From Pseudomonas phage BRkr: a stretch of DNA of 64,000 nt. Of this stretch, positions 14,016 to 47,980 are shown piece after piece. The stretch lies in sequence record LC765218.1, one strand, 5' to 3'. Both the position numbers and the translations under genes were made by a program. Below the pieces are notes generated by a model that worked only from the letters and a program-made list of their open reading frames with translations, was not told where the DNA came from and made no database searches. Each line of letters starts with the position of its first letter. Position 1 is the first letter of the stretch.

Positions 14016-15641
14016 ATGATAAATAAAGCATTGAACAGCACGTCTTCTTATAAACTTGCTGTTGTCAATAATTCGCTCAGACGTTTCTTCGAGGAAACGA
14101 TGGGTCGAATTAACACGGATCTTTTCGTGATACATAACCCGAAATTTGTTAAAGCCATGTTCGATGAGATTTTGAAAACCCTTCCGGATTTTCATGCACC
14201 CACGGACGTTATTAATAATCACATCCGTATTCAGTTCCTTAATACTGTTTCTGATCGCGTTAAAGCGATGTCTGAAAATTTCAGTATATTTAAAGAAACA
14301 TATCAGAAAAGTAATACTGGTATTCTTTTTGAAGACTGGTATTACGAGAGACAACGCGAAGGTATCATGTTGGCTCAGTCCGGTAAATACGACGAACTTA
14401 TTGACAAAGTGGAGAATAGTGAGATGCAATCCAAAGACAAGAATATTGACATTAATCTTGCCGAAGCCATTACTGACTTCATCGCCAGCGTTATACCTAC
14501 AGAACATCGCATGGATTTCATTGGGTACAACGGCAAGTTCGTTAAAGAACTGGCAGTTAAAGTAGCTATTGATCTGGATATTCGAAACCTGCCTTCGGAC
14601 AAGATCCCAACTGTTGGGGAAGTACTGAACTTCCTTAATTCCAATTATAGCAAAGCTCTCGATGAACGAGCTATCGTTTATGGGAAATATATTAACTTCT
14701 ATAAACGTTGCTGTGAAGCCGGCCAGATGAATGGGATGCTGTTTGAAGATTGGTTGATCTCTACTGGTCGAATGGAGAAAAAGGAAATCAAACACGATAA
14801 CCCGTACATCGTTGGTCAGTATACTTCGAAAGGTCCGATTAGTTACGCGCCCTCCCAGAAAACGAACCAACTCGGTGATGATTTCATTGCTGAAACTCGC
14901 CTTCGTTCCGTGCCTTCTATTTTCCGTGGTGGTAATCGGATCAATACTGGGTTCGAACATGAAACAGTGAAAAGTTCGTCATACCTGCAAAACCCAGGTC
15001 TCACTGATCTCTACTATGCAGAGAGTGATAATAACGATAATGACAAACATGTAGAAGAGAATACGCATACACTTGATCGGATCTCTACTGCTTTCACGAG
15101 TGGTAAACTTTCCCCAGAGGAAGAAGCGCGTGCTGCTATCCATCGTGAATTTTCTGGTCCTTCTATTGCACAACTTCTTGTTGAAGAGGCTCAGCGTATT
15201 AGTGAAACCGCAAATAAAATTAATAAGGAAGGAGGCAATGTAAAATCGATGAAGATTGCGGCACTTTCGGCAGATAGTATTCGCCGGGGTGAGTATTTCC
15301 GTTCTCCGCTGACTATTGTTTTCTCTTCTATCAAAGATAAGAAGGAACGAGACTGGGTATTCTCTATCGTCAAGGCGCATGTTCGGGATTGTGTTAAAAA
15401 CAACACCATCGATCCAGTGACGGCCATTCAAGGTCTTCGCAATTTGCATTCTTCCTTTATTGAAGATGACAATCGTTTTGATGACACGATGCTCACTCAC
15501 ATGAAAGAGTATTCTTCGGCGATTGCGCAATACGCTGATCAACTCAGTAAAGTTGTGAACATTAAGAGTGCGAAGGAAATCTACAGTAAGTTGAAAGACC
15601 ACTTGGATGATCTTGAAGACCTCTTGTCTGACGAGAAATAA
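14016..15641 (+). CDS. hypothetical protein
   Basis: 541 aa; AAAAGGA RBS; promoter-like motif at 13964-13973. Confidence 0.6.
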   Translation: MINKALNSTSSYKLAVVNNSLRRFFEETMGRINTDLFVIHNPKFVKAMFDEILKTLPDFHAPTDVINNHIRIQFLNTVSDRVKAMSENFSIFKETYQKSNTGILFEDWYYERQREGIMLAQSGKYDELIDKVENSEMQSKDKNIDINLAEAITDFIASVIPTEHRMDFIGYNGKFVKELAVKVAIDLDIRNLPSDKIPTVGEVLNFLNSNYSKALDERAIVYGKYINFYKRCCEAGQMNGMLFEDWLISTGRMEKKEIKHDNPYIVGQYTSKGPISYAPSQKTNQLGDDFIAETRLRSVPSIFRGGNRINTGFEHETVKSSSYLQNPGLTDLYYAESDNNDNDKHVEENTHTLDRISTAFTSGKLSPEEEARAAIHREFSGPSIAQLLVEEAQRISETANKINKEGGNVKSMKIAALSADSIRRGEYFRSPLTIVFSSIKDKKERDWVFSIVKAHVRDCVKNNTIDPVTAIQGLRNLHSSFIEDDNRFDDTMLTHMKEYSSAIAQYADQLSKVVNIKSAKEIYSKLKDHLDDLEDLLSDEK

Positions 15642-15824
15642 GAAAAGAAATACTGGGGCTAGTTATTTAATACAGGAAATGACCGTGAGGTCCTGACCTG
15701 CTATTTGAGCTATGCCCCAGATCACTGCATACTGAAGTTTGAATCTTAAGGAAACAAATATGTAATACAGTATGTGAAGACTGAATGTCCTCAAATGACC
15801 TTGCTTTTATAGCGGGTCCTCCGG

Positions 15825-15863
15825 TCTATATTGTATTAAAAAAAATCTGAGATCTATATAACA
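15825..15863 (+). promoter_or_regulatory. tandem early-promoter-like motifs (TCTATATTGT at 15825-15834 and TCTATATAAC at 15854-15863)
   Basis: ggTCTATATTGTattaaaaaaaatctgagaTCTATATAACag ahead of the chmA candidate; the second copy shares the flank aaaaaat(at)ctgagatctatat with 25295-25320. Confidence 0.5.
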
Positions 15864-15931
15864 GTTTTGAATCCAATACACTGTTGGATCTCATTCTTGA
15901 TCAAGAAACGTTACAAACATAGGAACAAATC

Positions 15932-17797
15932 ATGATTCGTGATACCGAAACTCAAAACACTCAAGCTCAAGCCAACAACGCTCCGGCTCAAGCTGCTCCG
16001 CGCGCACAACAGGAAGCTCCTCGTATGCAACAAGCTGCACCTCAAGCTCTGCAAGGCGGTATTTCCGGCCTGCCGAACATGTTTAAACGTTCCGGTCGTA
16101 CTGATGGCGGCGACGCCCGTGCGAGCGAAGCGCTGCAAGTAATGACCCGCGTTGGCAAAGATGCCATCGACCATCAAGACCTGGAAAACGATTTCCAGAT
16201 TCTGCGTTTCGACCGTGATGCCAACCGTGTTGGCTACTCCGCGCTGCTGATCGTCAAGCACGCTGCTGGTGGTAACGGTATCATCGTAGTTCGTCCGCTG
16301 ATCATGCCGAACCCGGCAATCACCCTGCCTCCGCGTCAGGTTACCATTCAGAACGGCATGAGCCACGATCGCTTCGATGTAGACGTCGAAGTACAAGACG
16401 TATTCACCGTTCAGTACTGGAACCGCATCTGCGAATTCGTTCGTCAGACCACCGGTCGTCCGAAGGCTGAAGTACACCCGGCTGGACCGCTGCCGATCCC
16501 GGCTGAATTCGATCTGAAAGACGAAGTCCTGCTGAAAGACATTCTGATCCGTTCCGTCAACCTGTGTGACGACGTTCTGGCTAAGAAAGCTGGCGAGACT
16601 CCGTTCCAGATCGCAATGCTGCGCGGCCAAGATGAAACCCTGGCTGCCAAGATGGACTTCTCCGGTCGTCCGGTAATGGACAGCGTCGGTAACCCGATCA
16701 AGTCCGACATCGTGATCAGCCTGAACCGTACCAAGAAACAAGGTCAACAAGAGAACGAGTTCTACGAAGCAGACACCATGCTTAACCAGGTGTCGGTACA
16801 AGTAACCCTGGAGTACACCCCCACTCCGCAAGCCCAGATGTTCGGTCAACAGACCCAACCGCTGCCGCCGTTCTCCCCGGCGATCCTGGTAACCGACATT
16901 CGTCAGGCCAACTGGATCAAGGCAAACACTCTGGAACTGTACCTCTTCGCTCTGTCGAACGCCTTCCGCGTAACCGCTGGCCAGGCTTGGGCTCGTAAGT
17001 TCCTGCCTCAAGTTGGTAAAGTTAAAGACCTGGGTGACATCGGTGCTCTGGGTTGGCTGTCCAACCTGGGTAAGAAGATCGATACCAAGTCCGATACCTT
17101 CACCGATCAGAACTTCGCTGATCTGATGCTGAGCATGGTTCGTCCGAACCCGTCCTTCCTGATCGATCTGGATCGCATGGGCGACAACGCAGCACTGGAC
17201 GTAATCTTCCTGGATGCCATGGGTGGCCCGAACCAACAGAAAGCTACTGCCGCGATCATTCGCGCTGTACAGAACCTGGTTGGTGGTGGCTTCGAGCGCT
17301 TCTTCGACTTCAACACTCAGCCGATCATTGCATCGACTGGCACTGAAGTGAACAAGGGCTACTACTGGGATGGCGACGAGAAACGTGACCGTCGTGACCT
17401 GGATGCACTGGGTGCACTGAACGCTGCTGAGGGCAACCAACAAGAGTGGATGTCCTGGTACGGTACTCAATGCAACCCGAACATCCATCCGGAACTGCGT
17501 AACAAGCAATCCAAGAACTACGACCGTGCGTTCCTGGGTGCTGTAACCTACACCACTCGTGCACATCGTGGTATCTTCAACCCGAAGTTCATCGAGGGTC
17601 TGGATAAGGCGATTGCTGCTGCTGGTCTGACTGTAGCAATGGACAACGTTGCACAGGTCTTCGGTGCTCAGCGCTTCGTTGGCAACACCATGATCCAAGA
17701 CTTCGCTGTCGGTTCTACCGCACAGGTTGTCAACGGCATGGGCGTTGGTGGCGGCTACCAGATGAACATGGTAGGTTCGGTTGGTACTCTGTACTAA
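15932..17797 (+). CDS. chmA: abundant early protein; candidate chimallin (ChmA) phage-nucleus shell protein; a major capsid protein is the alternative
   Basis: 621 aa with Q/A-rich disordered N-terminus. Codon usage is strikingly different from neighbours (GC-rich third positions: CTG, CGT, AAC, GGT), typical of a very highly expressed gene. Sits directly upstream of the RNAP beta-prime N-terminal gene, which I recall (from memory) as the phiKZ gp54-gp55 arrangement. Tandem early-promoter motifs upstream. Identity rests on size, context and expression signature, not on a recognised motif. Confidence 0.5.
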   Translation: MIRDTETQNTQAQANNAPAQAAPRAQQEAPRMQQAAPQALQGGISGLPNMFKRSGRTDGGDARASEALQVMTRVGKDAIDHQDLENDFQILRFDRDANRVGYSALLIVKHAAGGNGIIVVRPLIMPNPAITLPPRQVTIQNGMSHDRFDVDVEVQDVFTVQYWNRICEFVRQTTGRPKAEVHPAGPLPIPAEFDLKDEVLLKDILIRSVNLCDDVLAKKAGETPFQIAMLRGQDETLAAKMDFSGRPVMDSVGNPIKSDIVISLNRTKKQGQQENEFYEADTMLNQVSVQVTLEYTPTPQAQMFGQQTQPLPPFSPAILVTDIRQANWIKANTLELYLFALSNAFRVTAGQAWARKFLPQVGKVKDLGDIGALGWLSNLGKKIDTKSDTFTDQNFADLMLSMVRPNPSFLIDLDRMGDNAALDVIFLDAMGGPNQQKATAAIIRAVQNLVGGGFERFFDFNTQPIIASTGTEVNKGYYWDGDEKRDRRDLDALGALNAAEGNQQEWMSWYGTQCNPNIHPELRNKQSKNYDRAFLGAVTYTTRAHRGIFNPKFIEGLDKAIAAAGLTVAMDNVAQVFGAQRFVGNTMIQDFAVGSTAQVVNGMGVGGGYQMNMVGSVGTLY

Positions 17798-18128
17798 GAA
17801 ACAACTCCCCCGGTTGATAGGGGTGTCAGAAGGCTGGCATCCCGATTCAAATACTGCGACCCTGGTTCACTTCGGTGATAACGGTTAGGAGTAGGTTCCG
17901 CGAAGTAATCGACTAGTGGGCGTAAAGTCTAGGTCGACCTCTCGCTACACGGGCCGTGAGTGATCACTTAACCGAAAGGAGTTACTCTTGGGTAACGTGT
18001 GATCAAACAACGATGGATGGTAAAAGGTCCTAGTGCCAGAGTGCTACAGAGAAGAGCGGAGGTTAAGCTTTGTAGACGACGCTAGGATCGTGCCAGGCTC
18101 CGTTGGTGGTCCATCGATAGTAGATAAG

Positions 18129-18165
18129 GCGGCTCCTTCGGGAGCCGCTTCTATCTCCTTTTTTT
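18129..18165 (+). terminator. hairpin followed by a T7 run, upstream of the RNAP beta-prime N gene
   Basis: gcggctcc-ttcg-ggagccgc, then ttctatctcc, then ttttttt; the T-run is 10 nt from the stem, so not canonical. Confidence 0.45.
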
Positions 18166-18189
18166 GTCGAGACATAATAGGAAGTAGGT

Positions 18190-19656
18190 ATGGGTCTATA
18201 TGCTCAGGTTGTCAATCATGACGAGATGCTCGCTAACCAAAGAGGTAAAGTAGTATTCGCTAATGACTTTAATACCAGCAATGCTGAACAAAAGGAGGAA
18301 TTCCAACGTTATCTGTTCTCCCATTATCAGGATGCAGATGCGATCGAGAACTCAGCTTCGTGTGACTGTGAGCATATCACAGAAGCATACAAGCTTGGGG
18401 TAATCTGCGATAACTGCGGTACACCAGTAGTAAGCACGAGCAACCGACCCATCGTTCCATCGATGTGGATTCGGGCACCGGAAGGGGTGGATCGTCTGGT
18501 GAGTCCCGAGTTGTGGATTATGCTTTCAGGTTATATGTCGATGAAAGAATTCGACTTCCTGGAGTATCTGACCAACACCCAGTATCAGTACGATTACGAT
18601 ACGATCAGTTCGAAGGAAACAAAACGGAAACTTGACAAGTTGCTGGCTCGCCAGTTCCCGCGTGGACTGAACAACTTCGTTCAGAACTTCGATACGATCT
18701 TCCAGTTCTTGCTCGATAGCAGTATCATCAATACCAACAAAGGTGAGATGGCTGCATTCGTTAACCAGAATAAAGAACATCTGTTCCCGAAGAACATTCC
18801 GATCCCAACTAAACTCTGCTTCGTTGTAGAGTCTACGACCTCGGGTGTTTACATCGATAAGCCGATCGGCGCAGCAATCGATGCGGTACTGACTATTAGT
18901 AGTATCGGTAGTTCGGCAATTCCGCTGAAACCAATCACTGTACAAAACCGTGTAGCTCGTGCATTGAAGCTTCTAGCTATCTTCCACGAGAACTACGACA
19001 AACAACGAATTGCACAGAAACCCGGTTTGGTTCGTCGACATGTACTAGGTGGTCGTCTTAACCTGACTGCACGTGCAGTAATTACTTCTATCAGTGATCC
19101 GCATGATTACGATGAACTTCACATTCCGTGGGGTGTTGGTTGTCAGCTGTTGAAGTATCATCTGATCAACAAGCTCAAACGCAAATTCCGTATGACGACT
19201 CGCCAAGCGAACTCGTTCATTTACGAGAACGTTCTGAAGTACAACGAAGTCATCGATCAACTGTTCAAAGAGATCATCGCGGAATCGAAGTATAAGGGTC
19301 TTCCTTGTGTATTCCACCGCAACCCGACTCTGCAACGTGGTTCGACTCAACAGTTCTTCATCACCGTTATCAAGAATGACATTCGCGATAACTCAATCAG
19401 CATGTCGGTCCTCTGTCTTAAAGCTCCTAATGCTGATTTCGACGGCGATCAGTTGAATTTGACGTTGATGCCCGATAACTATCTGGCTGATGCAACTGAG
19501 CGAATCGCTCCGCATACTTGGGTACTAAGTCCTGATGATCCGCACGAGATCTCGGGTAACTTGGAACTACAAGGTCCGGTAGTAGAGACCATCATCAACT
19601 ATGCTCACGAGGACTATCTTCCGTCCTTGGAAGAATGGTTGGCGAAAGCAGCTTAA
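18190..19656 (+). CDS. multisubunit RNA polymerase beta-prime, N-terminal fragment
   Basis: N-terminal zinc finger (CDCEH...CDNCG), GGRLNLTARAVITS region resembling beta-prime RFSGRSVI, and the catalytic NADFDGD motif (KAPNADFDGDQLNL); 488 aa, ending shortly after the active site, as in split phage RNAPs. Confidence 0.85.
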   Translation: MGLYAQVVNHDEMLANQRGKVVFANDFNTSNAEQKEEFQRYLFSHYQDADAIENSASCDCEHITEAYKLGVICDNCGTPVVSTSNRPIVPSMWIRAPEGVDRLVSPELWIMLSGYMSMKEFDFLEYLTNTQYQYDYDTISSKETKRKLDKLLARQFPRGLNNFVQNFDTIFQFLLDSSIINTNKGEMAAFVNQNKEHLFPKNIPIPTKLCFVVESTTSGVYIDKPIGAAIDAVLTISSIGSSAIPLKPITVQNRVARALKLLAIFHENYDKQRIAQKPGLVRRHVLGGRLNLTARAVITSISDPHDYDELHIPWGVGCQLLKYHLINKLKRKFRMTTRQANSFIYENVLKYNEVIDQLFKEIIAESKYKGLPCVFHRNPTLQRGSTQQFFITVIKNDIRDNSISMSVLCLKAPNADFDGDQLNLTLMPDNYLADATERIAPHTWVLSPDDPHEISGNLELQGPVVETIINYAHEDYLPSLEEWLAKAA

Positions 19657-24483: not shown

Positions 24484-25230
24484 ATGTCTCAACAATCCCA
24501 AGGCCCTGCCCTCTCTCCGTTCTCTGTAATGTCCACTTGGCTACATGCTGATCCGGTAGAAGGTTCTCAGAAACGTCCTAACCTGCGTTTCGGTGTCTTT
24601 GGTAACGTACCTCGCCTGACCGTACGTACTAACGTTCAAGGTGATCTGAATAACGGTAAGATTGAATTCAAAACTGACCTGGCTACTTTTGCAGCTGCAA
24701 TGAAGTATGCACGGGATCTTGTCGATGGTAAAGATGTTCCTCAAGAACGTAAGTTTGTTCACCAAGATGACTTTGTTGGCGGTAAAAAGATCGATAAGAT
24801 CATTCCGATCACCACACTGGTAATCGGCCGCGAACAGAACTCTGGTCGTATTTACATTGCTCTTATCTCTTCTCAGCAACAGCGCCCGCGTATTCGGTTC
24901 TTCTTCGGTCCGTCGAAATATCACACCATCCTGAATGGTGATGGTTCCCCCATCTCTCCGAAAGAGATGTCCGAAGCTTACGCTACCGGTTTCCTGGAAC
25001 CGGCCACTGCAATCATTTACCAGATGATGGTAAGCAGTTTTGACCAGAACGCTAAGAACGTAGCCAACCCAGCTAACTTTGGTAACGGTGGCGGCGGTGG
25101 TCAACGTCAAGGTGGCTATAATGGCGGCAACCGTGGTGGTAATAGCGGTGGTGCTCCTCAAGGTTACAATCGTCCGTCCTCCGGTGGTTTCCAGGACAAT
25201 GGCTTTGACGATTCCATTCCTGACTTCTAA
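24484..25230 (+). CDS. single-stranded DNA-binding-like protein (Gly/Asn/Gln-rich linker, acidic C-terminal tip DDSIPDF)
   Basis: C-terminus GGGGGQRQGGYNGGNRGG...FDDSIPDF mirrors the SSB tail (E. coli ends DFDDDIPF); N-terminal 170 aa not recognisably a classical OB fold by eye; host-like codon usage; followed by a 12-bp stem-loop. Confidence 0.5.
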   Translation: MSQQSQGPALSPFSVMSTWLHADPVEGSQKRPNLRFGVFGNVPRLTVRTNVQGDLNNGKIEFKTDLATFAAAMKYARDLVDGKDVPQERKFVHQDDFVGGKKIDKIIPITTLVIGREQNSGRIYIALISSQQQRPRIRFFFGPSKYHTILNGDGSPISPKEMSEAYATGFLEPATAIIYQMMVSSFDQNAKNVANPANFGNGGGGGQRQGGYNGGNRGGNSGGAPQGYNRPSSGGFQDNGFDDSIPDF

Positions 25231-25274: not shown

Positions 25275-25310
25275 TGCCCTCTATTTCCTGACATTAAAAA
25301 ATATCTCAGA

Positions 25311-25352: not shown

Positions 25353-26930
25353 ATGCGCATCGACGTTACTGGGGTACAAGGCAACGGCTTTGTGGAAGTA
25401 ACCACTAGCCATAAAGGAAACGAAATCAAGTGGAGTACAAGGGCTTATAGCAAAGTAAAACTCAATGATCCAACTCGTGTTTTCAAGGAATTTAATGATT
25501 ACCTAGAAAGCTGCGATGAGGCTGATCAAGATCGTATCTGGAACAGCTATGTCAAAATCAACGATCTGTTCAAGATGGACTTCGAACCGGCGCACATCTC
25601 CAGTACGCTGATCCATTACATCCATGAACTGTACTCAGCTCTGCCAATGAACAAACTCCGTCGTTGGCTGTTGACTATTGGTAATCTGCATATTCCACCA
25701 GAGATCCAGAAAACGATCACTGATGAATCGCGCTACACCAAGCGTGAGCAGACTTATCTTCAACATGACTACATCAACCTCGCTACTGTGGCACTTGGTC
25801 TTCGACCGATGGTTCCGATTTGGGGAGAATACATTGATTCGGGTACGGATCAAGAACTCCACAAAGAAAACGAAGTTGTTGGTTTGATTAGCCGTTGTGA
25901 AATTGCTAACTGGCCGCTACTTGAAAAAGATGAAGTGGGTGAAGATGTAGATACTGCATTTGACAAACTGGAAGGGTACGTCAAATTCTGCGTTGAAGAT
26001 GAACCGACTACTTTGGGTAGCCTTTGGCGTGGTATGAGTTCAGTTGAAATTCCAGTACATCTTCGTTCGAAGGTTCTGGTTCGCCGACTGACAATCGTTC
26101 CTCTGAACGATCCAATGTCCCACTCTATCGTAGCTAACACGTTCCGTTACGTACGTAGCAATCTCAATCCTGCCGAGCGTAGTCCAACTGATCGCGTTAA
26201 TGAAAAGCGTCCAGAAGGCGGCGGTGGTGACGACGAAGATAAAACTTCGTTTATTGAGGCACACAAGACGAAAGGTCGAGTTAGCCCAGGTGACATTGAG
26301 GCATACAACATCGATGCGATGGATTATGAGCTACTGGCACAAACGGTAGATCCTACTATCGACATGGAGAAACTGAGAAAATGTATTAGTTGCGTGAGTC
26401 AGGTCGCGAACTTTGAGATCCGTCCTCACCAAGTACTACTGGCACAATGGGTAATGGCAAAAGCTTTCCCGGCGCGTGCTTTCTATCATATCTCCAAACT
26501 GCCAGTCAATACACTGTTGGCAACTACCCAGGCTCTACTGTGGCATTGGGGTTACCTTGATGTAGCTGTGTTCCTACAAGTCGAACCTGTTTATCACGGT
26601 GAACATGGATCGACTAATCAGCTTAGTAATACCCGAAGTGGTTCGAGAATTGCTCAGAAGTATAAGGCACAGCTCGATGAACTCTATCCGCATATGAAAC
26701 TCGCTAAGGTCCCCCAATCGGGAGAGATTCCTAAGCCAGATAACATGGCGGGTATTGCAGTGAATAACTGTAACCAGTCCATCCGCTCCTCTACTTGGAT
26801 CTATCATGGTCCACCTGAGCTGTTCAAGCTTTCTGGACAGATTGCTCAGAACAACATTCTGATTCCACCTCCAAATATCAAGCACACGATCACCGAAGTG
26901 GTTCTACACCTCGCTCAGATCAACCAGTAA
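25353..26930 (+). CDS. hypothetical protein
   Basis: 525 aa; AGAGG RBS; promoter-like motif 25311-25320; first gene of a block ending with the RNAP beta and beta-prime parts. Confidence 0.6.
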   Translation: MRIDVTGVQGNGFVEVTTSHKGNEIKWSTRAYSKVKLNDPTRVFKEFNDYLESCDEADQDRIWNSYVKINDLFKMDFEPAHISSTLIHYIHELYSALPMNKLRRWLLTIGNLHIPPEIQKTITDESRYTKREQTYLQHDYINLATVALGLRPMVPIWGEYIDSGTDQELHKENEVVGLISRCEIANWPLLEKDEVGEDVDTAFDKLEGYVKFCVEDEPTTLGSLWRGMSSVEIPVHLRSKVLVRRLTIVPLNDPMSHSIVANTFRYVRSNLNPAERSPTDRVNEKRPEGGGGDDEDKTSFIEAHKTKGRVSPGDIEAYNIDAMDYELLAQTVDPTIDMEKLRKCISCVSQVANFEIRPHQVLLAQWVMAKAFPARAFYHISKLPVNTLLATTQALLWHWGYLDVAVFLQVEPVYHGEHGSTNQLSNTRSGSRIAQKYKAQLDELYPHMKLAKVPQSGEIPKPDNMAGIAVNNCNQSIRSSTWIYHGPPELFKLSGQIAQNNILIPPPNIKHTITEVVLHLAQINQ

Positions 26931-28584: not shown

Positions 28585-29878
28585 GTCTGTACTCCCCTCG
28601 TTCGCCTGCGAGTTCGATGAAGAAGGTTATATCAGCCTCCGCAATCCGGTAGGTACTGCTTCTCCTTCGACCGTAGACGGTAAACGTCTTGTAATCCCAA
28701 CCGATAAGTTCCTTCGCAAGGGATTCGGTGAAGACTTCCAGCCGTTCCACCCGCTGAGTGAAGCATTGAGTCGCCGGGGTACTTCCCCGGTGATTCAGTA
28801 TCTGCAACGCGCAGCAAAAGCACACATTAGTTTCGTCGTCCACAAAATGGCCGAACAACTTCTGACCATCGCAGCGGACAAGTCGTCCCACAAGGACCTG
28901 CCACCGGATGCAACTGACTTCCTGAAGAAACTGGCAGATGCGGATAAAGCAACTGTCGGTCTGTTCGAGAAACTGATGCCTGCTGCTACTAAGAAGAACC
29001 GACTGGTTGCAGTTTACTTGAAGAATGGCGGTACTTTCGATGGTAAGAAAGTAAACCGTATGGCGATCATTCGCTTCCCGATCCTGGAAGATCTTCAGGC
29101 TGAAACTGATGATGTTCTTGGTATCAAGATGGCGAAGAAACAACGTAAGGTTCTCACTGCGCTGTTCAAACTGATCGTTCCGTTTGGTGACAATCCGGAA
29201 GAGTATGCCTTTGGTACTACCAGCCGTGTTGCACCTTATTACACCAGTCTTCTGACAGCGTATCACAAAGTAATCGTGATGCTCAATCAGCTGATTAACC
29301 GGTACGCGATCCCACTGCAAATCCCCGTCAATCTTATTCCTGTGTTTGATCTGGATCTGATCGACGAGTTCCCGAAGATCTATAACCTTATCCCTCCGCT
29401 GAATGGCAACCTCGGTGGTCGTGATGAGGATACTCCGGAAACTGCCGAAGCTGTACAAACCCAGCAACAAGCACCGAGCGTTACTGCTCCACAAGCCAGT
29501 ACTCCTCAGCTGACTCGTCCCGCCGCAGTTGTTAGCAAACCTGTAGAAAAAGATACTGTCTCCATGAGCGAATTCATGGCCGCACAGAATCCCCAACCGC
29601 AGATGATGCAGCAGCAAATGGGAATGATGATGCCGATGAATAACGGCATGATGATGCCAGGCAATGGCATGATGCAGATGAATGGCATGGGTGGGATGAT
29701 GCAACCTATGCAAATGGGTAACATGCAGCCCCAGGGTATCCAAGCGAACGCACCCATTCCCGCGTGGATGGGTGGCCAACAACAGGGCACGATGATGATG
29801 GGTAACGGTCAACCGGCTAACCCGTACATGCAGGCTGTGGCTGGCATGCGTCAAACCAATGGTCTTGGATTGGTGTAA
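28559..29878 (+). CDS. hypothetical protein with a C-terminal Met/Gln/Gly/Asn-rich low-complexity tail
   Basis: 439 aa; AAGGAG RBS; last ~110 aa are MMQQQMGMMMPMNNGMMMPGNGMMQMNGMGGMMQPMQMGNMQPQG... Confidence 0.6.
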   Translation: MSLILDSYKSVLPSFACEFDEEGYISLRNPVGTASPSTVDGKRLVIPTDKFLRKGFGEDFQPFHPLSEALSRRGTSPVIQYLQRAAKAHISFVVHKMAEQLLTIAADKSSHKDLPPDATDFLKKLADADKATVGLFEKLMPAATKKNRLVAVYLKNGGTFDGKKVNRMAIIRFPILEDLQAETDDVLGIKMAKKQRKVLTALFKLIVPFGDNPEEYAFGTTSRVAPYYTSLLTAYHKVIVMLNQLINRYAIPLQIPVNLIPVFDLDLIDEFPKIYNLIPPLNGNLGGRDEDTPETAEAVQTQQQAPSVTAPQASTPQLTRPAAVVSKPVEKDTVSMSEFMAAQNPQPQMMQQQMGMMMPMNNGMMMPGNGMMQMNGMGGMMQPMQMGNMQPQGIQANAPIPAWMGGQQQGTMMMGNGQPANPYMQAVAGMRQTNGLGLV

Positions 29879-30283: not shown

Positions 30284-30314
30284 AGAGGAATCCTACAAAA
30301 AAATAATTTTCACA

Positions 30315-30356: not shown

Positions 30357-32468
30357 ATGCAAAGTCTACCAAATGCCATCCGTGAAATTAACCTGCGTTT
30401 GCTCGGTCACGCGGCAATTGATCCATATTACGGAACAACCTCCGCGGCACGCGGTGCCATGTTGCTGTCACATATTGGACAATCGCCAGTAGTGGAAGGG
30501 AACGAGCCACGTCGGGTAATGGCGGGTATCGAAATGCGTTATGCTGAACATACCTTCGATATTCGTTTCCCAACGGATTGCGTTGTTCTGAATATTATCC
30601 GTAAGTATCCCACTGGTGTGGGTCGTGGATCTATTCGACATAACCCCGTAACTACGATCGTGTATGAGGAGTATTACGACGAGTTTAAACGAATCGGTGT
30701 TATCCATGTACCAGAGTACCTAAGCTTTCACCAGGACTTTGGATTCAAACTTGAGAAGCAGAAAGATGTATGGAATAACCTTGCCGTTGGTGAGATGTTT
30801 GCCAAAGATACGGTTATTGCACAATCCACAACTGTAAAAGAAAATGGTCTTCTGGGCATGGGCGTTAACGCCACCGTGATGTTCGGTTCTATGCCTGGTA
30901 CTATTGAGGATGGTTTCGTATTCTGCGATGAGTTCCTTCGGGAGAAGATGGCTCCTCGTACTTATACAACCGCTACTGGCGGAGCTGGTAAGAAAGCATT
31001 CTTCCTCAATATGTACGGTGACGATAAAAACATCAAGCTCTTCCCTGATATCGGTGAACGTATTCGTGATGATGGTGTTATCTTCGCTGTTCGAGACCTT
31101 GATGACGATCTCTCGCCAGCTGAAATGACTCCACGTGCATTGCGCACCCTCGATCGTACGTTTGACCGTGCCGTAATTGGTGATCCGGGCGCAATCATTA
31201 AAGACATCAAAGTGTATTGGGATGATCGTCAAAATCCATCTTATACTCCGAGTGGTATGGATGGACAACTGCGGAAGTACTATGACGCACTGGCGTCGTA
31301 TTACCGTGAGATCATCAAGGTATATAAAGGTCTGTCTGCCCGCCGTAAAGATCGCCTCCATATGACCGAGGAATTTCGTCAACTTGTAGTAGAAGCGATG
31401 ATCTATCTGCCTCAAGCCGAAGGTCAACGTAAGCTGACCCGTATGTATCGACTGGATCAACTTGATGAATGGCGTGTTGAAATCACCTATGAATCGATTA
31501 AAGAACCGGGCGGTGCATATAAAGCCACTGATTTCCATGGCGGCAAAGGTGTCGTTTGTAAGATCATGAAGCGAGCAGATATGCCTCGTGACGTGAATGG
31601 TAACGTTGCAGATGTTGTTATCTTTGGCGGCTCGACTATGCGTCGTTCTAACTATGGTCGTATCTATGAACATGGTTTCGGTGCAGCATCTCGCGATCTG
31701 GCTCAACGTCTCCGAGTTGAATGTGGGCTAGAGCGTCATGGTTCCTATGAACTTGACGACGTTGTAAACCATATCAGAAACAATCCTGACTTTATCAAGT
31801 ATGCCTTTAATGAGCTGCTTGATTTCTATGCAATCGTTACTCCGACAATGCATGGAATGGTTAAGGATCACCCGAATCCGATTCAACATGTATCGCATGT
31901 ATTGAGAGATGGTTTTGCGTACTTGTATTCCCCGGTTGATGACCCCGTACATTTGCCGACAGCAAGTAACCAAATCCTTAATTCTCGCTTCTGTCCAACA
32001 TATGCACCGGTGACATATCGAGATCAAACAGGTAAAGAAGTAACGACAAAAGACCCAATGTTGCTTGGCCCGCTATACATGATGCTGCTCGAAAAGATCG
32101 GTGAAGACTGGTCGGCCGTAGCATCGGTGAAGACTCAACAGTTTGGTCTACCATCGAAACTGAATAACTCCGATCGGTCCAGTACACCTGGTCGAGAAAG
32201 CGCTATTCGTTCGTTTGGTGAATCTGAGACTCGATCTTACAACTGTACGGTCGGTGCACTACCCACGGTAGAACTGTTGGATCAAACCAATAACCCCGAA
32301 GCACACATTGCTGTGATCAACTCTATCCTCACTGCGGATAAACCGTCCAACATTGAGAAAGCAGTTGATCGTTCCAAAATCCCATTCGGTAACTCCCGAC
32401 CAGTTGGACTTCTGTCGCACTTGTTGGAATGCCGTGGATTGCAGTTCAAGTACGCGCCCGGTGTTTAA
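30357..32468 (+). CDS. multisubunit RNA polymerase beta, C-terminal fragment
   Basis: DFHGGKGVVCKI...ADMPRDVNGNVADVVIFGGSTMRRSNYGRIYEHGFGAAS aligns with E. coli beta RHGNKGVISKI...EDMPY...[29 protein letters not shown]; later GRESAIRSFGESETRSYNCTVGA resembles GGQRFGEMEVWALEAYGA; AGGAG RBS; promoter-like motif 30315-30324. Confidence 0.85.
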   Translation: MQSLPNAIREINLRLLGHAAIDPYYGTTSAARGAMLLSHIGQSPVVEGNEPRRVMAGIEMRYAEHTFDIRFPTDCVVLNIIRKYPTGVGRGSIRHNPVTTIVYEEYYDEFKRIGVIHVPEYLSFHQDFGFKLEKQKDVWNNLAVGEMFAKDTVIAQSTTVKENGLLGMGVNATVMFGSMPGTIEDGFVFCDEFLREKMAPRTYTTATGGAGKKAFFLNMYGDDKNIKLFPDIGERIRDDGVIFAVRDLDDDLSPAEMTPRALRTLDRTFDRAVIGDPGAIIKDIKVYWDDRQNPSYTPSGMDGQLRKYYDALASYYREIIKVYKGLSARRKDRLHMTEEFRQLVVEAMIYLPQAEGQRKLTRMYRLDQLDEWRVEITYESIKEPGGAYKATDFHGGKGVVCKIMKRADMPRDVNGNVADVVIFGGSTMRRSNYGRIYEHGFGAASRDLAQRLRVECGLERHGSYELDDVVNHIRNNPDFIKYAFNELLDFYAIVTPTMHGMVKDHPNPIQHVSHVLRDGFAYLYSPVDDPVHLPTASNQILNSRFCPTYAPVTYRDQTGKEVTTKDPMLLGPLYMMLLEKIGEDWSAVASVKTQQFGLPSKLNNSDRSSTPGRESAIRSFGESETRSYNCTVGALPTVELLDQTNNPEAHIAVINSILTADKPSNIEKAVDRSKIPFGNSRPVGLLSHLLECRGLQFKYAPGV

Positions 32469-32494: not shown

Positions 32495-34468
32495 ATGAAT
32501 CAGTATAAAGCACGTGATCTTCTCAATATGAGTTACGATGAACTCTGGGCGATTCCAAGTGAATGGCATGAGATCATCTTTGATGACGGGGAGAAACTCT
32601 ATGCAAAAGATCGGATCACCAAGCTGTCGGTTCTGCTCTGGTATCCACTGAAAGCTTTCCCTGATGCCCCGGTTCTGAAAGATTACCATCTGGCATCTAC
32701 TCGGGTTACCTCTAAATCTCTTGTGAAATACCTTAACAAAGTTATTTGGGGTATTCATGCATGGAGTGGTGAACAGATCGATCCAGAGGTTTTGGCTAAA
32801 CTGGCTATTGAAGGAAAGAATTGGCTTTATAATGAAACCACGACTCGACTGAGTGCTTACATTGCAACCCTGTCGATCTTTGACATTATGGAAGTGTACA
32901 ATCACCCGGCAGTTAGAAAGGCTAACCAAGATGTACAACCTACTACGTACGGGATTGAAAACATTTCTTACGGGATGATCAAAGAAGCATTCAACGACGA
33001 AACACAGTTCCGTGGTAACAGCATCATTGAGGGCCTGCGCTCGGGTACGCAGAAAATGGAGCAATTGCTTCAGGCATACGGACCACGTGGTTTCCCGACA
33101 GACATTAACTCTGATATTTTCAGTGAGCCGTGTACCACTGGTTACATTGATGGTATTTGGGGTTTGTATGAAAACATGATCGAATCCCGATCGGGTACCA
33201 AAGCTCTGTTGTATAACAAAGAGCTACTGCGTGTAACCGAGTATTTCAACCGGAAGTCTCAGTTGATTGCTCAGTATGTACAGAACCTACACACTGGTGA
33301 TTGTAATGGTCACTTGATCGACTTCCCTGTAATGCAGGGTACGTTGAAAGCTCTTCGTGGCAAGTACTATCTGAACGAACAGACAGGTCAACTGGACTGG
33401 CTGAAAGGGGATGAGAAACATCTTATCGGTAAAAAGATTAAGATGCGTTCTATTTTGGGATGTGTGCATCCGGATCCTCAGGGTGTATGTTCGCGGTGTT
33501 ATGGGCGACTAAGTTTCTCTATTCCAAAAGGAACTGTCATTGGTCAGGTATCGGCTGTATCCATGGGTGACAAAATCACTTCTGCGGTATTGTCGACAAA
33601 ACACACTGATGCAACCTCGGCTGTAGAACAGTATCAGATTGGTGGCGTCGAAGCTAAGTACCTGCGAACTGGATCTGCGGCTGAAACTCTTTATCTGAAG
33701 AAAGAACTCTCGGGTAAAGGTTTCCGCTTGATGATCGGTCGTAACGAAGCCCAGAACCTGGCTGATATTCTGATGATCGATGACCTTAGTGCATATCCAG
33801 CACCGAGTGCTTCTGAACTGACCCGTATTGGTTTGGTACGGACGGTTGATGGAGTAGACGAAGGCGATGTATTGACGGTGTCGCTGTATAACCGTCGAGC
33901 TAGTCTATCGACTGAAATGCTGCAACATATCAAACGTGTACGTTGGGAACTTGACGCTCGTGATAATATCGTGATCGATATGGCCGGGTTTGACTTTGCC
34001 CTGCCGTTCCTGACGTTGCCTAATAAGCACGTAAACATGTACGAAGTGATGAAGCGTATTCAGTCATTCCTGCACTCTGGTAGTGATACTGAAGGGTCTA
34101 AACTGAGCTCAGATAAGGTAGGTTTTACTAGCAAGACTTATCTTAAGAACTACAAAGACCCAGTTGATGCTTTGGCAGCCACTGTGTCGCTGTTGAATGA
34201 GAAGTTCTCTTTGAATGCCGTTCACTGTGAGGTTCTGGTTTATGCTATGATGGTGCGCTCTATCGCTGAACGCGATTATCGTCTGCCTAAGCCGGGTATT
34301 ACGGGTCAGTTTGAAAAATACAACAAACTGATGATGTCCCGTTCTCTTGCTGGTGCGATGTCGTTTGAGAAGCAACATGAGCCGTTGAACAATCCTGGCA
34401 GTTTCCTCTACACACTGAGGAATGACCATCCCTACGATCTTGCGGTCATGGGAGGTAAGCTGCTCTAA
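32495..34468 (+). CDS. multisubunit RNA polymerase beta-prime, C-terminal fragment
   Basis: GCVHPDPQGVCSRCYGRLSF...GTVIGQVSAVSMGDKITSAVLSTKH resembles the E. coli beta-prime Zn-II/trigger-loop region GVCAHCYGRDLARG...[31 protein letters not shown] RBS; immediately follows the beta part. Confidence 0.7.
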   Translation: MNQYKARDLLNMSYDELWAIPSEWHEIIFDDGEKLYAKDRITKLSVLLWYPLKAFPDAPVLKDYHLASTRVTSKSLVKYLNKVIWGIHAWSGEQIDPEVLAKLAIEGKNWLYNETTTRLSAYIATLSIFDIMEVYNHPAVRKANQDVQPTTYGIENISYGMIKEAFNDETQFRGNSIIEGLRSGTQKMEQLLQAYGPRGFPTDINSDIFSEPCTTGYIDGIWGLYENMIESRSGTKALLYNKELLRVTEYFNRKSQLIAQYVQNLHTGDCNGHLIDFPVMQGTLKALRGKYYLNEQTGQLDWLKGDEKHLIGKKIKMRSILGCVHPDPQGVCSRCYGRLSFSIPKGTVIGQVSAVSMGDKITSAVLSTKHTDATSAVEQYQIGGVEAKYLRTGSAAETLYLKKELSGKGFRLMIGRNEAQNLADILMIDDLSAYPAPSASELTRIGLVRTVDGVDEGDVLTVSLYNRRASLSTEMLQHIKRVRWELDARDNIVIDMAGFDFALPFLTLPNKHVNMYEVMKRIQSFLHSGSDTEGSKLSSDKVGFTSKTYLKNYKDPVDALAATVSLLNEKFSLNAVHCEVLVYAMMVRSIAERDYRLPKPGITGQFEKYNKLMMSRSLAGAMSFEKQHEPLNNPGSFLYTLRNDHPYDLAVMGGKLL

Positions 34469-47872: not shown

Positions 47873-47980
47873 TTTTGAGCTTCCTTTTTAAAACTTAAAT
47901 CACGTAGTATTAATCACCAGAGTAATCTCTCATTCGAGCTTTACTTTATGATTAATAAAACTGACGAGTAGGCCACTCTC

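Follow-up and report, generated by a model that had tools for sequence, protein, structure and literature searches.

The stretch of DNA analysed here (the window: 64,000 nucleotides of Pseudomonas phage BRkr, record LC765218.1) is best explained as carrying the chimallin gene of a nucleus-forming Pawinskivirus, together with a model in which the neighbouring RNA polymerase gene would be expressed by transcriptional read-through; of this joint explanation we are close to certain. The chimallin finding itself is already known, as the gene is annotated in some near-identical genomes. Less ordinary than the known shell gene is a conserved structured non-coding RNA of ~350 nt, predicted between chmA and the RNA polymerase gene.

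Identification of chimallin

As judged from sequence, the window comes from a nucleus-forming, phiKZ-like jumbo phage of Pseudomonas aeruginosa that belongs to the genus Pawinskivirus, and its DNA is 99.5-99.6% identical to that of PA1C, HHBS36_1 and PS119XW, P. aeruginosa jumbo phages of this genus. An earlier note on this DNA had singled out one open reading frame, present as claimed, as a candidate nuclear shell gene:

15932..17797, + strand: chmA, 621 aa, encoding chimallin, the main shell protein of the phage nucleus (Pfam, PHROG and PDB matches)

The Pfam family, the PHROG family and solved chimallin structures all bear out this reading, and we assign the protein as the Pawinskivirus ortholog of chimallin (ChmA). 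Pfam PF25677 matches over the full length (residues 1-621) with 1101.8 bits against a cut-off of 27, and PHROG 4795, 'nuclear shell protein', matches with E 1e-198. Sequence matches to structures include phiPA3 PhuN (PDB 8fne, E 7e-261) and 201phi2-1 chimallin (PDB 7sqq, E 7e-204, residues 1-604). By tblastn, residues 40-621 are 100% identical to the nuclear shell protein of PS119XW and HHBS36_1, residues 1-39 being masked by the low-complexity filter, and RefSeq NC_070882 and PQ287642 already label the same protein a nuclear shell protein. Compared with the known chimallin/ChmA/PhuN set (Pfam PF25677; PDB 7SQQ, 8FNE, 8IGG), ChmA of the window is 66% identical to phiPA3 gp53, 53% to 201phi2-1 gp105 and 49% to phiKZ gp54. 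It shares with them an equal length, a low-complexity N-terminal arm, an early promoter and a site 5' of the non-virion RNA polymerase (nvRNAP) beta' gene, with no substantive difference. According to Laughlin et al. 2022 and related work on the family, synthesis of ChmA begins very early and is massive, and the protein self-assembles via N- and C-terminal extensions into a lattice that encloses replicating phage DNA and excludes host nucleases.

The alternative stated at the outset, an HK97-fold major capsid protein, is vanishingly improbable. Strong codon bias is generic for an abundant structural protein and the size fits jumbo-phage capsid proteins, but Pfam and PHROGs match the chimallin family only, all four PDB sequence matches are chimallin or PhuN, and in eight genera chimallin occupies just this place, beside nvRNAP genes and downstream of an early promoter. 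Searches of Pfam, PHROGs and PDB sequences returned no capsid or HK97 family for the 621-aa protein, and on these matches, all of them to chimallin, we ruled out a major capsid protein. Nothing in the Pfam, PHROG, PDB or gene-order comparisons counts against the chimallin assignment.

The gene neighbourhood is also that of a nucleus-forming phage. The adjacency of gp54 and gp55 in phiKZ had been described correctly, and this layout is common to eight Pseudomonas chimallivirus genera. Among the hallmarks of such phages, a PhuZ tubulin gene lies ~18 kb upstream of chmA in HHBS36_1 (a 99.5% identical genome), at a position corresponding to just beyond the window edge. Within the window are a divergent family-B DNA polymerase, a phiKZ-type internal head protein and, besides the beta' N-terminal subunit, three further nvRNAP subunit genes, listed here after a probable ChmC gene:

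24484..25230, + strand: probable ChmC, nucleus-associated RNA-binding protein (gene order only)
25353..26930, + strand: nvRNAP fifth subunit, PHIKZ068 homolog (PDB 7ogp_B, E 4.4e-204; early-promoter motif at 25300)
30357..32468, + strand: nvRNAP beta subunit gene, uninterrupted (PHROG 3295; Pfam Rpb2 domain 6)
32495..34468, + strand: further multisubunit RNAP subunit gene (PHROG 3015, 'RNA polymerase beta subunit', E 2.6e-230)

PHROGs 18919 and 23982 match one half each of the beta gene, which has an early-promoter motif upstream at 30304. From its position, we infer that the gene at 32495-34468 is the second beta' piece (phiKZ gp74-like). The open reading frame at 24484-25230 probably encodes ChmC because it lies directly 5' of the gp68 homolog, as do phiPA3 gp61 and 201phi2-1 gp123 (PMC11077065); it is kept in 83 chimallivirus records and has no match in PDB or Pfam. 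The chimallin match, the nvRNAP genes and these hallmarks support the proposed Chimalliviridae-type, nucleus-forming phage.

Expression signals of chmA

Codon usage sets chmA apart from its surroundings, as had been noticed. Its GC3 of 0.62 is the highest of the 61 window ORFs (mean 0.40, sd 0.067; z = 3.2), and local GC is 0.56 compared with ~0.41 in the flanks. The pattern is one of translational selection and not plain GC enrichment, in keeping with the claim that chmA uses the codon set of abundant proteins: relative to other large ORFs, CTG provides 96% versus 29% of Leu codons, AAC 100% versus 59% of Asn codons and TTC 97% versus 66% of Phe codons, CGT and CGC together make up 100% of Arg codons, and GCT and GGT are retained. 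The same relative codon shift is found in chmA of phiKZ and 201phi2-1. The N-terminal arm is Q/A-rich as described, with 11 Ala and 10 Gln among residues 1-45 and a Q+A+P+N+T fraction of 0.69 there versus 0.32 elsewhere.

Three elements lie upstream of the gene:

15825..15831, + strand: TCTATAT heptamer (core heptamer only)
15836..15862, + strand: early promoter motif of virion-RNAP type, AAAAAAAATCTGAGATCTATATAAC, kept upstream of chmA in seven genera
15896..15905, + strand: perfect palindrome CTTGATCAAG in the chmA 5'UTR, just 5' of the ribosome-binding site

The extended motif AWNWTYTSANATCTATAT occurs five times in the window with at most one mismatch, against 0.09 copies expected by chance (positions 3931, 13953, 15842, 25300 and 30304). 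All copies are intergenic, on the + strand and 35-75 nt 5' of start codons. Only one of them, at 15842-15859, precedes chmA, so the two tandem early-promoter copies proposed in the earlier note reduce to one conserved motif and an upstream heptamer that is not conserved. The latter, taken for the first copy, is probably not an independent early promoter: it is without the A-tract and TYTSANA context, the bare heptamer is not enriched in the window (12 found versus 10.9 expected), and it reads TCTATGT in phiKZ and is missing from five further genera, in contrast to the full motif, which seven genera share. In phiKZ, two start sites were mapped before gp54, one with an early and one with a middle motif, the primary site being that with the early motif (PMC8244752). 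By analogy, chmA may have a second promoter other than an early-motif copy. A single conserved early-promoter motif and the window's strongest optimal-codon bias are consistent with very high early expression of chmA. The palindrome CTTGATCAAG occupies the same position in all chimallin loci compared except that of Noxifer.

A predicted terminator and proposed read-through into the beta' gene

The beta' N-terminal fragment carrying NADFDGD had been described as immediately 3' of chmA. It is indeed the next gene, but a non-coding spacer of 392 bp intervenes:

18123..18165, + strand: intrinsic-terminator-like hairpin, GAUAAGGCGGCUCC-UUCG-GGAGCCGCUUCUAUC, followed by UCC and U7
18190..19656, + strand: nvRNAP beta' N-terminal subunit (phiKZ gp55 homolog), 488 aa, intron-less allele
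19429..19449, + strand: catalytic NADFDGD codons (residues 414-420)
between 19449 and 19450: empty group I intron insertion site (by comparison with PS119XW)

The beta' subunit matches phiKZ nvRNAP (PDB 7ogp_A) over residues 1-485 with E 1.8e-239, as well as Pfam Rpb1 domain 2 and PHROG 2987; as with phiKZ gp55, a gene of its own encodes the N-terminal part of beta' alone, NADFDGD catalytic motif included. A simple terminator scan missed the hairpin because three bases separate its stem from the U-run. All seven of the further Pseudomonas chimallivirus genera in the comparison have it. Its position in 201phi2-1 is ~700 nt 5' of beta', on the upstream side of ORF gp106, and the short spacers of Noxifer and RVTF4 consist largely of this hairpin. 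In the window, the beta' start codon follows the U-run after only 24 nt, and the ribosome-binding site lies 14-19 nt past the terminator. None of the five window copies of the 18-nt early-promoter motif falls within chmA or the spacer, and a sigma-70-type consensus scan of 15500-18300 gave no promoter-like site. In 201phi2-1, likewise, the beta' gene gp107 has no identified promoter of its own, the nearest early promoter being ~3 kb upstream, before chmA (PMC11512511).

We propose that chmA and beta' would both be transcribed from the chmA promoter(s). Most transcripts would end at the terminator, so that chmA mRNA would be abundant and carry a long structured 3' end, and the minority that pass the terminator would provide beta' in the much smaller amount needed. 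The arrangement resembles attenuators and partial operon terminators, with a hairpin and U-run, a highly expressed gene upstream, a low-need gene downstream and no promoter found between chmA and beta'. It differs from terminator-based attenuators, since no anti-terminator alternative fold was identified, and the response of the phage RNA polymerases to the terminator is putative: phiKZ-type enzymes may respond to intrinsic terminators unlike host RNAP. Some middle or late promoters, a poorly defined class in these phages, could also have been overlooked in the spacer or towards the 3' end of chmA.

A conserved structured RNA in the spacer

The chmA-beta' spacer is the most conserved DNA of the interval, 81-93% identical to phiKZ compared with 55-67% for flanking coding DNA and 49% for the ChmA protein. 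We predict that it holds an unannotated structured non-coding RNA of ~350 nt, with three multi-helix domains and the conserved terminator at its end:

17809..17953, + strand: domain 1, multi-branch (RNAalifold consensus and compensatory pairs)
17962..18003, + strand: domain 2, three-way junction (recognisable in five genera)
18011..18113, + strand: domain 3, nested helices H11-H15 (RNAalifold consensus and compensatory pairs)

Folding is strand-specific: the + strand reaches -144 kcal/mol (z = -4.1), whereas the - strand has z = -1.3. The RNAalifold consensus has ~115 pairs, 14 of them with double compensatory changes, where shuffles give 6.0 +/- 1.4 and slid registers 1-3, and 95.8% of cells pair in the consensus versus 34-42% when slid. 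Domain 1 is closed by CCCG (17809-17812) pairing with CGGG (17950-17953) and contains a ~140-nt insertion in phiPA3. Domain 2, laid out as GAUCAC-UUAA-[CC GAAA GG]-[GUUAC..GUAAC]-GU-GUGAUC, is the most widely conserved part: in five genera every helix is paired while the sequences differ, with weak support in Phabio and 201phi2-1. At domain 3, covariance model R1 scores 181 bits in the window, against 200 in phiKZ and 69.7 in phiPA3. Conservation ends at ~17842 and ~18170, near the structural boundaries 17809 and 18165. The RNA is present once per genome, and searches of IMG/VR, GTDB genomes and JGI metagenomes gave no copy (in IMG/VR, none beyond known phages). No Rfam family, group I, riboswitch and leader families included, matched the spacer at E <= 10.

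Several genome records annotate small proteins in the spacer, but that it encodes them is very unlikely. Automated 35-aa and 62-aa 'hypothetical proteins' appear in, for example, HHBS36_1 and HPP-Temi, and a 62-aa GTG ORF is present at 18033-18221. However, stop codons occupy every frame, with multiple stops in all three in the window and phiKZ alike, indels between the two are not multiples of three, the 62-aa ORF crosses the terminator and the beta' start, and substitutions compensate RNA pairing and are not codon-like.

Under the read-through model, the structured module (~320 nt) would act on RNA fate, through stability and/or ChmC binding, and not by coding. Noxifer and RVTF4, whose short spacers have the terminator without the structured module, indicate that the basic arrangement can do without the module, whose contribution must be a different one. 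The only published mention of this RNA that we found is a single sentence on eCLIP peaks of phiPA3 ChmC, reported between chmA and gp54 and uncharacterised (PMC11077065).

The RNA might serve mainly as a regulatory leader of the beta' gene, attenuator or riboswitch-like, a possibility that we regard as somewhat doubtful; so too is the version in which its domains sense a ligand or protein (ChmC, ChmA or nvRNAP) and set read-through into beta'. Its parts are ordered as in a classical attenuator, with a large folded and conserved region followed by a terminator and a ribosome-binding site, and no separate beta' promoter was found, in line with 201phi2-1. Unpaired positions are 79% identical to phiKZ, which suggests specific contacts, and the ChmC peaks of phiPA3 fall within the spacer, although ChmC showed little sequence specificity in that study (PMC11077065), so the peaks may reflect RNA abundance only. 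Against such a leader, no conserved anti-terminator pairing with the terminator arms was found, the sole candidate (GGCUCC in helix H15) being absent from phiPA3; riboswitch and leader families are unmatched even at the permissive Rfam threshold; two genera carry the terminator without the module; and the module exceeds typical aptamers 3-5-fold in size.

Tentatively, the module could instead be released from the chmA 3'UTR as a stable trans-acting RNA, and with similar reserve we suggest that it might, for example, titrate a host or phage RNA-binding protein or the degradosome. A very high output of the chmA promoter would place it among the most abundant RNAs of the infected cell, the conservation edges coincide with the ends of the RNA body, phiKZ makes 3'UTR-derived non-coding RNAs (PHIKZ298 3'UTR; PMC8545117), and the phiPA3 authors took their eCLIP peaks for small regulatory RNAs (PMC11077065). 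Yet it is missing from the candidates of the phiKZ Grad-seq and dRNA-seq studies, no processing site or separate promoter is evident, and neither another copy nor target complementarity was found. Known phiKZ-like non-coding RNAs (the PHIKZ298 3'UTR RNA and p40 5'UTR RNA, mBio 2021, and 201phi2-1 sRNA005) are likewise structured, have a terminator hairpin, lie beside a highly expressed gene and are conserved between related jumbo phages. They are, however, 100-180 nt long with two stems and occupy other loci, and the spacer RNA, at ~350 nt and ~115 base pairs, is unlike them in being far more conserved than its flanking genes.

Group I introns and the origin of the spacer RNA

The likeness of the spacer between Pawinskivirus and Phikzvirus could also mean that a selfish or mobile RNA (a degenerate intron, for instance) was recently transferred laterally, instead of being selected for a function useful to the phage, which we consider improbable. 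Protein and RNA disagree on the closer relative: for ChmA it is phiPA3 (66%, versus 49% for phiKZ), for the spacer RNA it is phiKZ (85%, versus ~59% for phiPA3). The element is accessory, missing in Noxifer and RVTF4; the Phikzvirus phages SL2 and PA7 have the Pawinskivirus version of helices H12/H13, suggesting recombination between co-infecting phages; and mobile group I introns are present in these genomes. Jumbo-phage group I introns (RF00028) resemble the spacer RNA in size and GC-rich multi-helix architecture, occur in the same genomes and may likewise be exchanged between co-infecting phages, and the spacer stretch CAGAGUGCUACA...UUGUAGAC resembles their R/S core. Nevertheless, the Rfam group I model scores true introns at the same loci ~75 bits and the spacer nothing at E <= 10. 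The spacer RNA lies outside any coding sequence and so, unlike group I introns, has no exons to join; it has no endonuclease ORF, it is single-copy, and databases hold no copy beyond known phages. The compensatory substitutions show that the structure has been under selection since the copies diverged. Lateral transfer and function are not mutually exclusive.

True introns occur in the adjacent gene. Close relatives have a group I intron directly after NADFDGD, and the window carries the uninterrupted beta' allele. In PS119XW, a 362-nt insertion lies exactly after codon 420 and is recognised by Rfam as a group I intron with 75.7 bits. A phiPA3 group I intron was reportedly studied by Birkholz et al. 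2024. The beta' gene of phiKZ is also interrupted at or next to the NADFDGD codons by a group I intron, with an HNH endonuclease gene.

Identity of the shell gene

The open reading frame (ORF) for which the earlier note had proposed a 621-aa chimallin is present at 15932-17797 on the + strand, and by sequence comparison its product is chimallin (ChmA). The Pfam family PF25677 (Chimallin_Phikzvirus) matched at 1101.8 bits (cut-off 27), with residues 1-621 aligned to profile positions 1-627 of 627, and PHROG 4795, "nuclear shell protein", matched with an E-value of 1e-198. All four PDB sequence matches were chimallin or PhuN: 8fne (phiPA3 PhuN; E = 7e-261, residues 26-612), 7sqq and 8igg (201phi2-1 chimallin; E = 7e-204, residues 1-604) and 7sqt, an entry also named chimallin (E = 4e-15). 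In sequence comparison, these solved structures take in the ChmA core and the N- and C-terminal extension regions, and identity to the phiPA3 protein, whose structure has been solved, is 66%. The alternative once offered for this gene, an HK97-fold major capsid protein, was ruled out by the same family and PDB searches, in which neither Pfam nor PHROGs yielded a capsid family and none of the PDB matches was a capsid chain.

Over a tested 4.1 kb, the window is 99.5-99.6% identical to the Pseudomonas phages PA1C, HHBS36_1, PS119XW (the type of genus Pawinskivirus) and phiLBG22. The label "nuclear shell protein" already stands on chmA in the PS119XW RefSeq record and in the HHBS36_1 record, and ChmA residues 40-621 are 100% identical to that annotated protein. 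Given the database matches and these annotations in near-identical phages, the chimallin reading is both correct and already known, a re-identification of an annotated gene in a sequenced phage lineage. As the chimallin, its adjacency to the beta' subunit gene of the non-virion RNA polymerase (nvRNAP) and the phage lineage are all described and annotated, the finding as posed adds no knowledge; its value is that of a validated call, in which a shell gene was named from raw sequence via codon bias, promoter and neighbourhood.

For phiPA3 (NC_028999), the RefSeq chimallin start apparently lies ~25 codons too far downstream (comparison locus L006, ~664-781): an upstream in-frame ATG (MSIRDSENNN...) lines up with the starts of the other phages and with their ribosome-binding-site context.

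Codon bias and upstream signals of chmA

Two 1-kb bins over chmA have GC contents of 0.56 and 0.54, with ~0.41 on either side, and the GC3 of the gene (0.62) is the highest among 61 non-overlapping window ORFs of at least 80 aa (mean 0.40, s.d. 0.067, z = 3.2). Leucine is encoded by CTG in 96% of cases compared to 29% in nine other large ORFs, and the same comparison gave 100% versus 59% for Asn AAC, 97% versus 66% for Phe TTC and 74% versus 43% for Ile ATC. Arginine codons are restricted to CGT and CGC, and chmA still prefers GCT and GGT. This is the pattern expected of translational selection rather than of plain GC enrichment, and the relative shift is common to the orthologs in phiKZ (GC3 0.42 versus 0.20-0.27 in adjoining genes) and 201phi2-1 (0.55 versus 0.40-0.46). 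Two traits first read from the sequence alone are thereby substantiated: the atypical codon usage, which is the strongest optimal-codon pattern in the window, and a Q/A-rich N-terminal arm, as the first 45 residues of ChmA hold 11 Ala and 10 Gln and the BLAST low-complexity filter masks residues 1-39.

We identified two kinds of putative regulatory element upstream of chmA, the first of which also precedes other genes:

3931, 13953, 15842, 25300 and 30304, + strand: copies of a promoter-like 18-nt motif, intergenic and 35-75 nt upstream of start codons
15896-15905, + strand: perfect palindrome CTTGATCAAG within TTCTTGATCAAGAA, in the chmA 5'UTR, ~26 nt before the start codon

The 18-nt pattern AWNWTYTSANATCTATAT, laid out as an A-rich tract, TYTSANA and TCTATAT, occurs five times at up to one mismatch where 0.09 copies are expected by chance. 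Only the copy at 15842-15859 precedes chmA, so the earlier claim of two tandem early promoters did not hold: the TCTATAT at 15825 is the heptamer without its upstream context, the heptamer itself is not enriched, and it reads TCTATGT in phiKZ and is missing from the other genera aligned. The full motif AAAAAAATCT(S)AGAT(Y)TATAT(N)AC is kept upstream of chimallin genes in an alignment of seven genera. Because differential RNA-seq (dRNA-seq) of phiKZ mapped two start sites before gp54, a primary one at an early motif and a secondary one at a middle-gene motif (PMC8244752), a second chmA promoter that is not a duplicate of the early motif is plausible by analogy. Two of the motif copies lie ahead of nvRNAP subunit genes, those for the gp68 homolog and for beta, as would be expected of early promoters dependent on the virion RNAP. 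Two indirect lines, the conserved early-promoter motif and the codon bias, which is the strongest in the window, are consistent with very early and very abundant expression of ChmA.

The palindrome CTTGATCAAG is found at the same position in seven genera, with phiKZ, phiPA3, 201phi2-1, Phabio, RVTF4 and Psa21 among its carriers; the window has two further exact copies within ORFs, at 29978 and 58523. The palindrome may serve as an operator or form a small hairpin in the 5'UTR.

The polymerase genes and other phage hallmarks

The gene following chmA (18190-19656, 488 aa) carries NADFDGD at residues 414-420. It matched 7ogp_A, from the solved phiKZ nvRNAP, with an E-value of 1.8e-239 over residues 1-485, and Pfam Rpb1 domain 2 at 40.1 bits (cut-off 25.3). 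Judged by these matches, which agree with the beta' N-terminal fragment proposed in the earlier note, it is the phiKZ-type nvRNAP beta' N-terminal subunit (gp55), a stand-alone gene with the NADFDGD Mg-binding motif. The order chmA-beta' is kept in Phikzvirus, Pawinskivirus, Miltoncavirus, Serwervirus, Phabiovirus, Tepukevirus, Noxifervirus and phage RVTF4.

The ORF at 25353-26930 matched 7ogp chain B (PHIKZ068; E = 4.4e-204), and ORFs 30357-32468 and 32495-34468 also encode RNAP subunits, giving four nvRNAP subunit genes in the window. We also identified a divergent family-B DNA polymerase (PF20286, 1042.9 bits) and a phiKZ-type internal head protein (PF12699), and found no tRNA or tmRNA in the window. 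In HHBS36_1, which is 99.5% identical, the PhuZ tubulin is annotated ~18 kb upstream of chmA, a position 1.6-2.5 kb past the left edge of the window. Chimalliviruses share a core set of two multisubunit RNAPs and, usually, PhuZ. The hallmarks of a nucleus-forming phage that the chimallin proposal had called for were thus located, as the four nvRNAP genes in the window and PhuZ in HHBS36_1.

One further gene in this region bears on the RNA described below:

24484-25230, + strand: putative ChmC, a nucleus-associated RNA-binding protein, 248 aa, directly upstream of the PHIKZ068 (gp68) homolog as in phiPA3 and 201phi2-1

This ORF is conserved in 83 chimallivirus records from several host genera. 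Because searches of Pfam, PHROGs and the PDB gave no named match, it is by gene order only that we take it to be a ChmC ortholog.

Among ORFs of at least 100 aa, the second-highest GC3 (0.55, z = 2.1) belongs to 28559-29878 (+ strand, 439 aa, PHROG 3520), which suggests another highly expressed gene of the nvRNAP cluster.

A conserved structured RNA between chmA and the beta' gene

In a first DNA search, phiKZ-type genomes matched only at query positions 2184-2625, corresponding to the 392-bp spacer between chmA and beta', and not at the genes. Spacer identity to phiKZ is 81-93%, in a block bounded near 17842 and 18170, while chmA and beta' reach only 55-67%; the corresponding protein identities are 49% for ChmA and 67% for beta'. 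The most conserved DNA of this interval is non-protein-coding. We rejected the spacer as coding sequence on the stops that break all three frames, both in the window and in phiKZ, and for the same reason the small "hypothetical proteins" annotated on it in some records are almost certainly artefacts.

The + strand of the spacer folds at -144 kcal/mol (z = -4.1 versus dinucleotide shuffles), compared to z = -1.3 for the - strand. We annotated the following features:

17809-18165, + strand: unannotated structured RNA of ~350 nt with three domains and a terminator-like hairpin
17809-17953, + strand: domain 1, multi-branch, with a long-range CCCG/CGGG closing helix
17962-18003, + strand: domain 2, a three-way junction
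18011-18113, + strand: domain 3, nested helices
18123-18165, + strand: terminator-like hairpin with an extended stem and UUCG loop, followed by UCC and U7

A conserved stretch, AAGAGCGGAGGUUAAGCUU (18052-18070), is unpaired. To evaluate the structure, we used an alignment of nine sequences from three genera, representing ~6 independent lineages, from which the consensus structure was also derived. RNAalifold predicted 17 consensus helices comprising 115 pairs, 14 of which are changed on both sides. Pairing was possible in 95.8% of alignment cells, versus 34-42% when the 3' partners were slid by 1-3 columns. Column shuffles (n = 500) gave 6.0 +/- 1.4 double-compensatory pairs and never as many as the observed 14; the slid registers gave 1-3. 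The spacer thus combines strand-specific stability, conservation, compensation and absence of coding capacity, the generic marks of a conserved structured RNA, within ~6 lineages and with a structure taken from the same alignment. In our judgement, the spacer RNA has very probably been selected for a function of some kind. We think a purely selfish mobile element less likely, as compensatory changes maintain the structure and no mobility machinery is present.

Covariance-model searches led us to reject membership of any Rfam family. No Rfam 15 family matched the window at gathering thresholds, and at E <= 10 the spacer gave four weak matches (14.6-20.9 bits), of which the two with alignments shown covered the terminator hairpin only. 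A group I intron was likewise rejected: the group I model (RF00028, P3-P9 core) had no match at E <= 10 in 17700-18300, while the positive controls from PS119XW and phiKZ scored 75.7 and 75.6 bits.

A core terminator-like hairpin and an accessory module

The putative terminator hairpin was missed by a simple terminator scan because three bases part the stem from the U7 run. By its sequence features it is kept across all compared genera, each with a GC-rich stem, a UUCG loop and a U-run tail of the form UUAU(N)UCUUUUUUU. It directly precedes the beta' ribosome-binding site, which lies 14-19 nt past it in the window, except in 201phi2-1, where it falls earlier in the spacer and is followed by the ORF gp106. 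Spacer length ranges from 84 nt in Noxifer and 102 nt in RVTF4, where the terminator makes up most of the spacer, through 392-394 nt in Pawinskivirus and Phikzvirus and 435 nt in Psa21, to 515 nt in phiPA3, 634 nt in Phabio and 874 nt in 201phi2-1.

The spacer sequence was found in 56 phage records, exclusively from Pseudomonas and with a single copy in each genome; the phiKZ copy lies at 47538-47899 (85% identity over 360 nt). With blastn, the RNA was confined to P. aeruginosa jumbo phages, and an nhmmer profile of the module matched the terminator alone in 201phi2-1, Psa21, Phabio and RVTF4. Since the terminator is universal among the compared genera and makes up most of the spacer in Noxifer and RVTF4, and since the module profile finds nothing but the terminator outside the P. 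aeruginosa phages, we conclude that the putative terminator forms the core of the spacer. The structured module is accessory, inserted downstream of the chmA stop codon and ahead of the terminator. In IMG/VR, exact-pattern scans with the conserved 5' hairpin recovered only PA7 and phiPA3, and they gave no match in 185,579 GTDB genomes or in JGI metagenomes; these scans demand an exact match to one signature, and diverged members would be missed.

We next asked how far the RNA extends with a covariance model of domains 2 and 3. It scored 181-200 bits on Pawinskivirus and Phikzvirus and 69.7 bits on phiPA3, found no second copy in the window and had no match on Psa21. Weak full-length matches, both on domain 2, occurred in the spacers of Phabio (12.6 bits; E = 0.31 over 153 kb, 0.0012 in the spacer alone) and 201phi2-1 (4.3 bits; E = 0.24 in the spacer). 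Parsed manually, domain 2 follows one layout in each of five genera: closing stem, CUU(A/U)A, two successive hairpins, (G/U)U, closing stem and AA-A-UAC. Every helix pairs in this parse although the hairpins have unrelated sequences, and covariation is seen in the closing stem at position 3 (U-A/C-G/U-G) and position 1 (G-C/A-U). A wider domain-2 family in five genera is probable but provisional, the Phabio and 201phi2-1 members being weak and partly manual in their parse. A descriptor scan for more such junctions gave four matches versus 1.85 expected, a chance-level count, and missed the window's own copy.

201phi2-1 and Phabio have in common a GGGAUC-GAAA-GGUCCC hairpin right past the chmA stop codon (comparison loci L012 4265-4460 and L013 4265-4548), and a provisional domain-2-like three-way junction downstream of chmA is also common to both. 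The Psa21 spacer (L015 4277-4711, 435 nt) is unusually stable (z = -3.3) with no detectable homology; an antisense ORF annotated there, PSA21_57, may be spurious.

In ChmA, the window is more similar to phiPA3 (66%) than to phiKZ (49%), and in the RNA it is more similar to phiKZ (85%) than to phiPA3 (~59% in aligned columns, plus a ~140-nt insertion). Within Phikzvirus, helices H12 and H13 (alignment columns 374-438, window ~18024-18088) occur as two alleles with coupled compensatory changes: SL2 and PA7 carry the Pawinskivirus version (GGUCC...GGAUC), and phiKZ, LC and PA02 carry GAGAC...GGCUC. The discordant ChmA and RNA phylogenies and the mixed alleles point to recombination between co-infecting P. 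aeruginosa phages, which would have acted alongside selection for structure; the H12/H13 alleles suggest that it took place within the RNA itself.

Possible roles of the spacer RNA

The spacer RNA is not described in the phiKZ dRNA-seq and Grad-seq papers or in the phiKZ and 201phi2-1 ONT-cappable-seq papers, and may be described elsewhere. The two ncRNA candidates named in the Grad-seq paper (PMC8545117) are different ones, phiKZ and jumbo phages go unmentioned in a survey of over ten thousand phage RNA motifs, and a phiKZ transposon-mutagenesis preprint reports chmA and orf55 as essential without discussing the spacer. Enustun et al. (PMC11077065) recorded eCLIP peaks of phiPA3 ChmC in the homologous chmA-gp54 spacer. 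These peaks provide independent experimental evidence for an abundant spacer RNA in contact with ChmC.

In 201phi2-1, no promoter was found for the beta' gene gp107, and the nearest early promoter lies ~3 kb upstream (PMC11512511), corresponding to the chimallin promoter. We likewise found no recognisable promoter between chmA and beta' in the window; the RNA sits 3' of the most highly expressed early gene and 5' of a beta' gene apparently without a promoter of its own. In the model we propose, transcription from the chmA promoter or promoters would mostly stop at the terminator, yielding chmA mRNA in very large amounts and with an extended, folded 3' end, and occasional read-through would supply nvRNAP beta', of which far less would be required.

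The folded module must contribute more than termination, since the terminator occurs without it in two genera. Our first preference is a cis-acting element governing stability or RNA fate, possibly through ChmC. Next we place a regulatory leader that tunes read-through into beta'; visual inspection of the alignment revealed no conserved anti-terminator, and no known aptamer family matched the RNA in Rfam 15 at E <= 10. Third is a processed, trans-acting RNA. An Rsm/CsrA sponge, suggested by the many GGA motifs, was dropped when the consensus structure, examined by eye, placed only one GGA in a hairpin loop.

It is conceivable, if on balance doubtful, that 17809-18165 represents a new class of jumbo-phage structured RNA acting as a ChmC-bound regulatory hub of early infection, which would control the stability, localisation or translation of chmA mRNA, read-through into beta', or both. 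If true, shell production would thereby be coupled to the change-over from virion-RNAP to nvRNAP transcription.

The by-product of this analysis that could matter is the RNA itself, an unannotated, covarying, multi-domain element between the shell gene and an essential polymerase subunit gene. phiKZ is the model nucleus-forming phage, and the spacer RNA may bear on how its mRNAs are stabilised, exported and apportioned. Antisense knockdown and deletion are now feasible in phiKZ, and the RNA is a well-defined, inexpensive target for them.

Introns in the polymerase genes

The beta' gene of the window is an intron-less allele. In PS119XW and phiLBG22, a 362-nt insertion lies exactly between codons 420 and 421, right after NADFDGD, and the PS119XW insertion is an Rfam group I intron (75.7 bits).

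19449|19450: window position of the insertion; the related positions in the comparison loci are 4328-4633 in L002 and 5231-5552 in L005

phiKZ beta' carries a different group I intron (75.6 bits) a few codons upstream of the PS119XW insertion site, and the HNH endonuclease gene gp56 sits between the two phiKZ beta' exons; the PDB chain name "PHIKZ055...PHIKZ056.1" reflects the spliced product. The RNAP beta gene (30357-32468, + strand) is also uninterrupted in the window. PHROGs divides it into two families, covering residues 8-396 (N-terminal) and 404-701 (C-terminal), and the gene is therefore split in other phages, presumably through an intron by analogy with phiPA3 gp65-66. The intron-less beta' and beta alleles may bear on intron-endonuclease competition among co-infecting jumbo phages.
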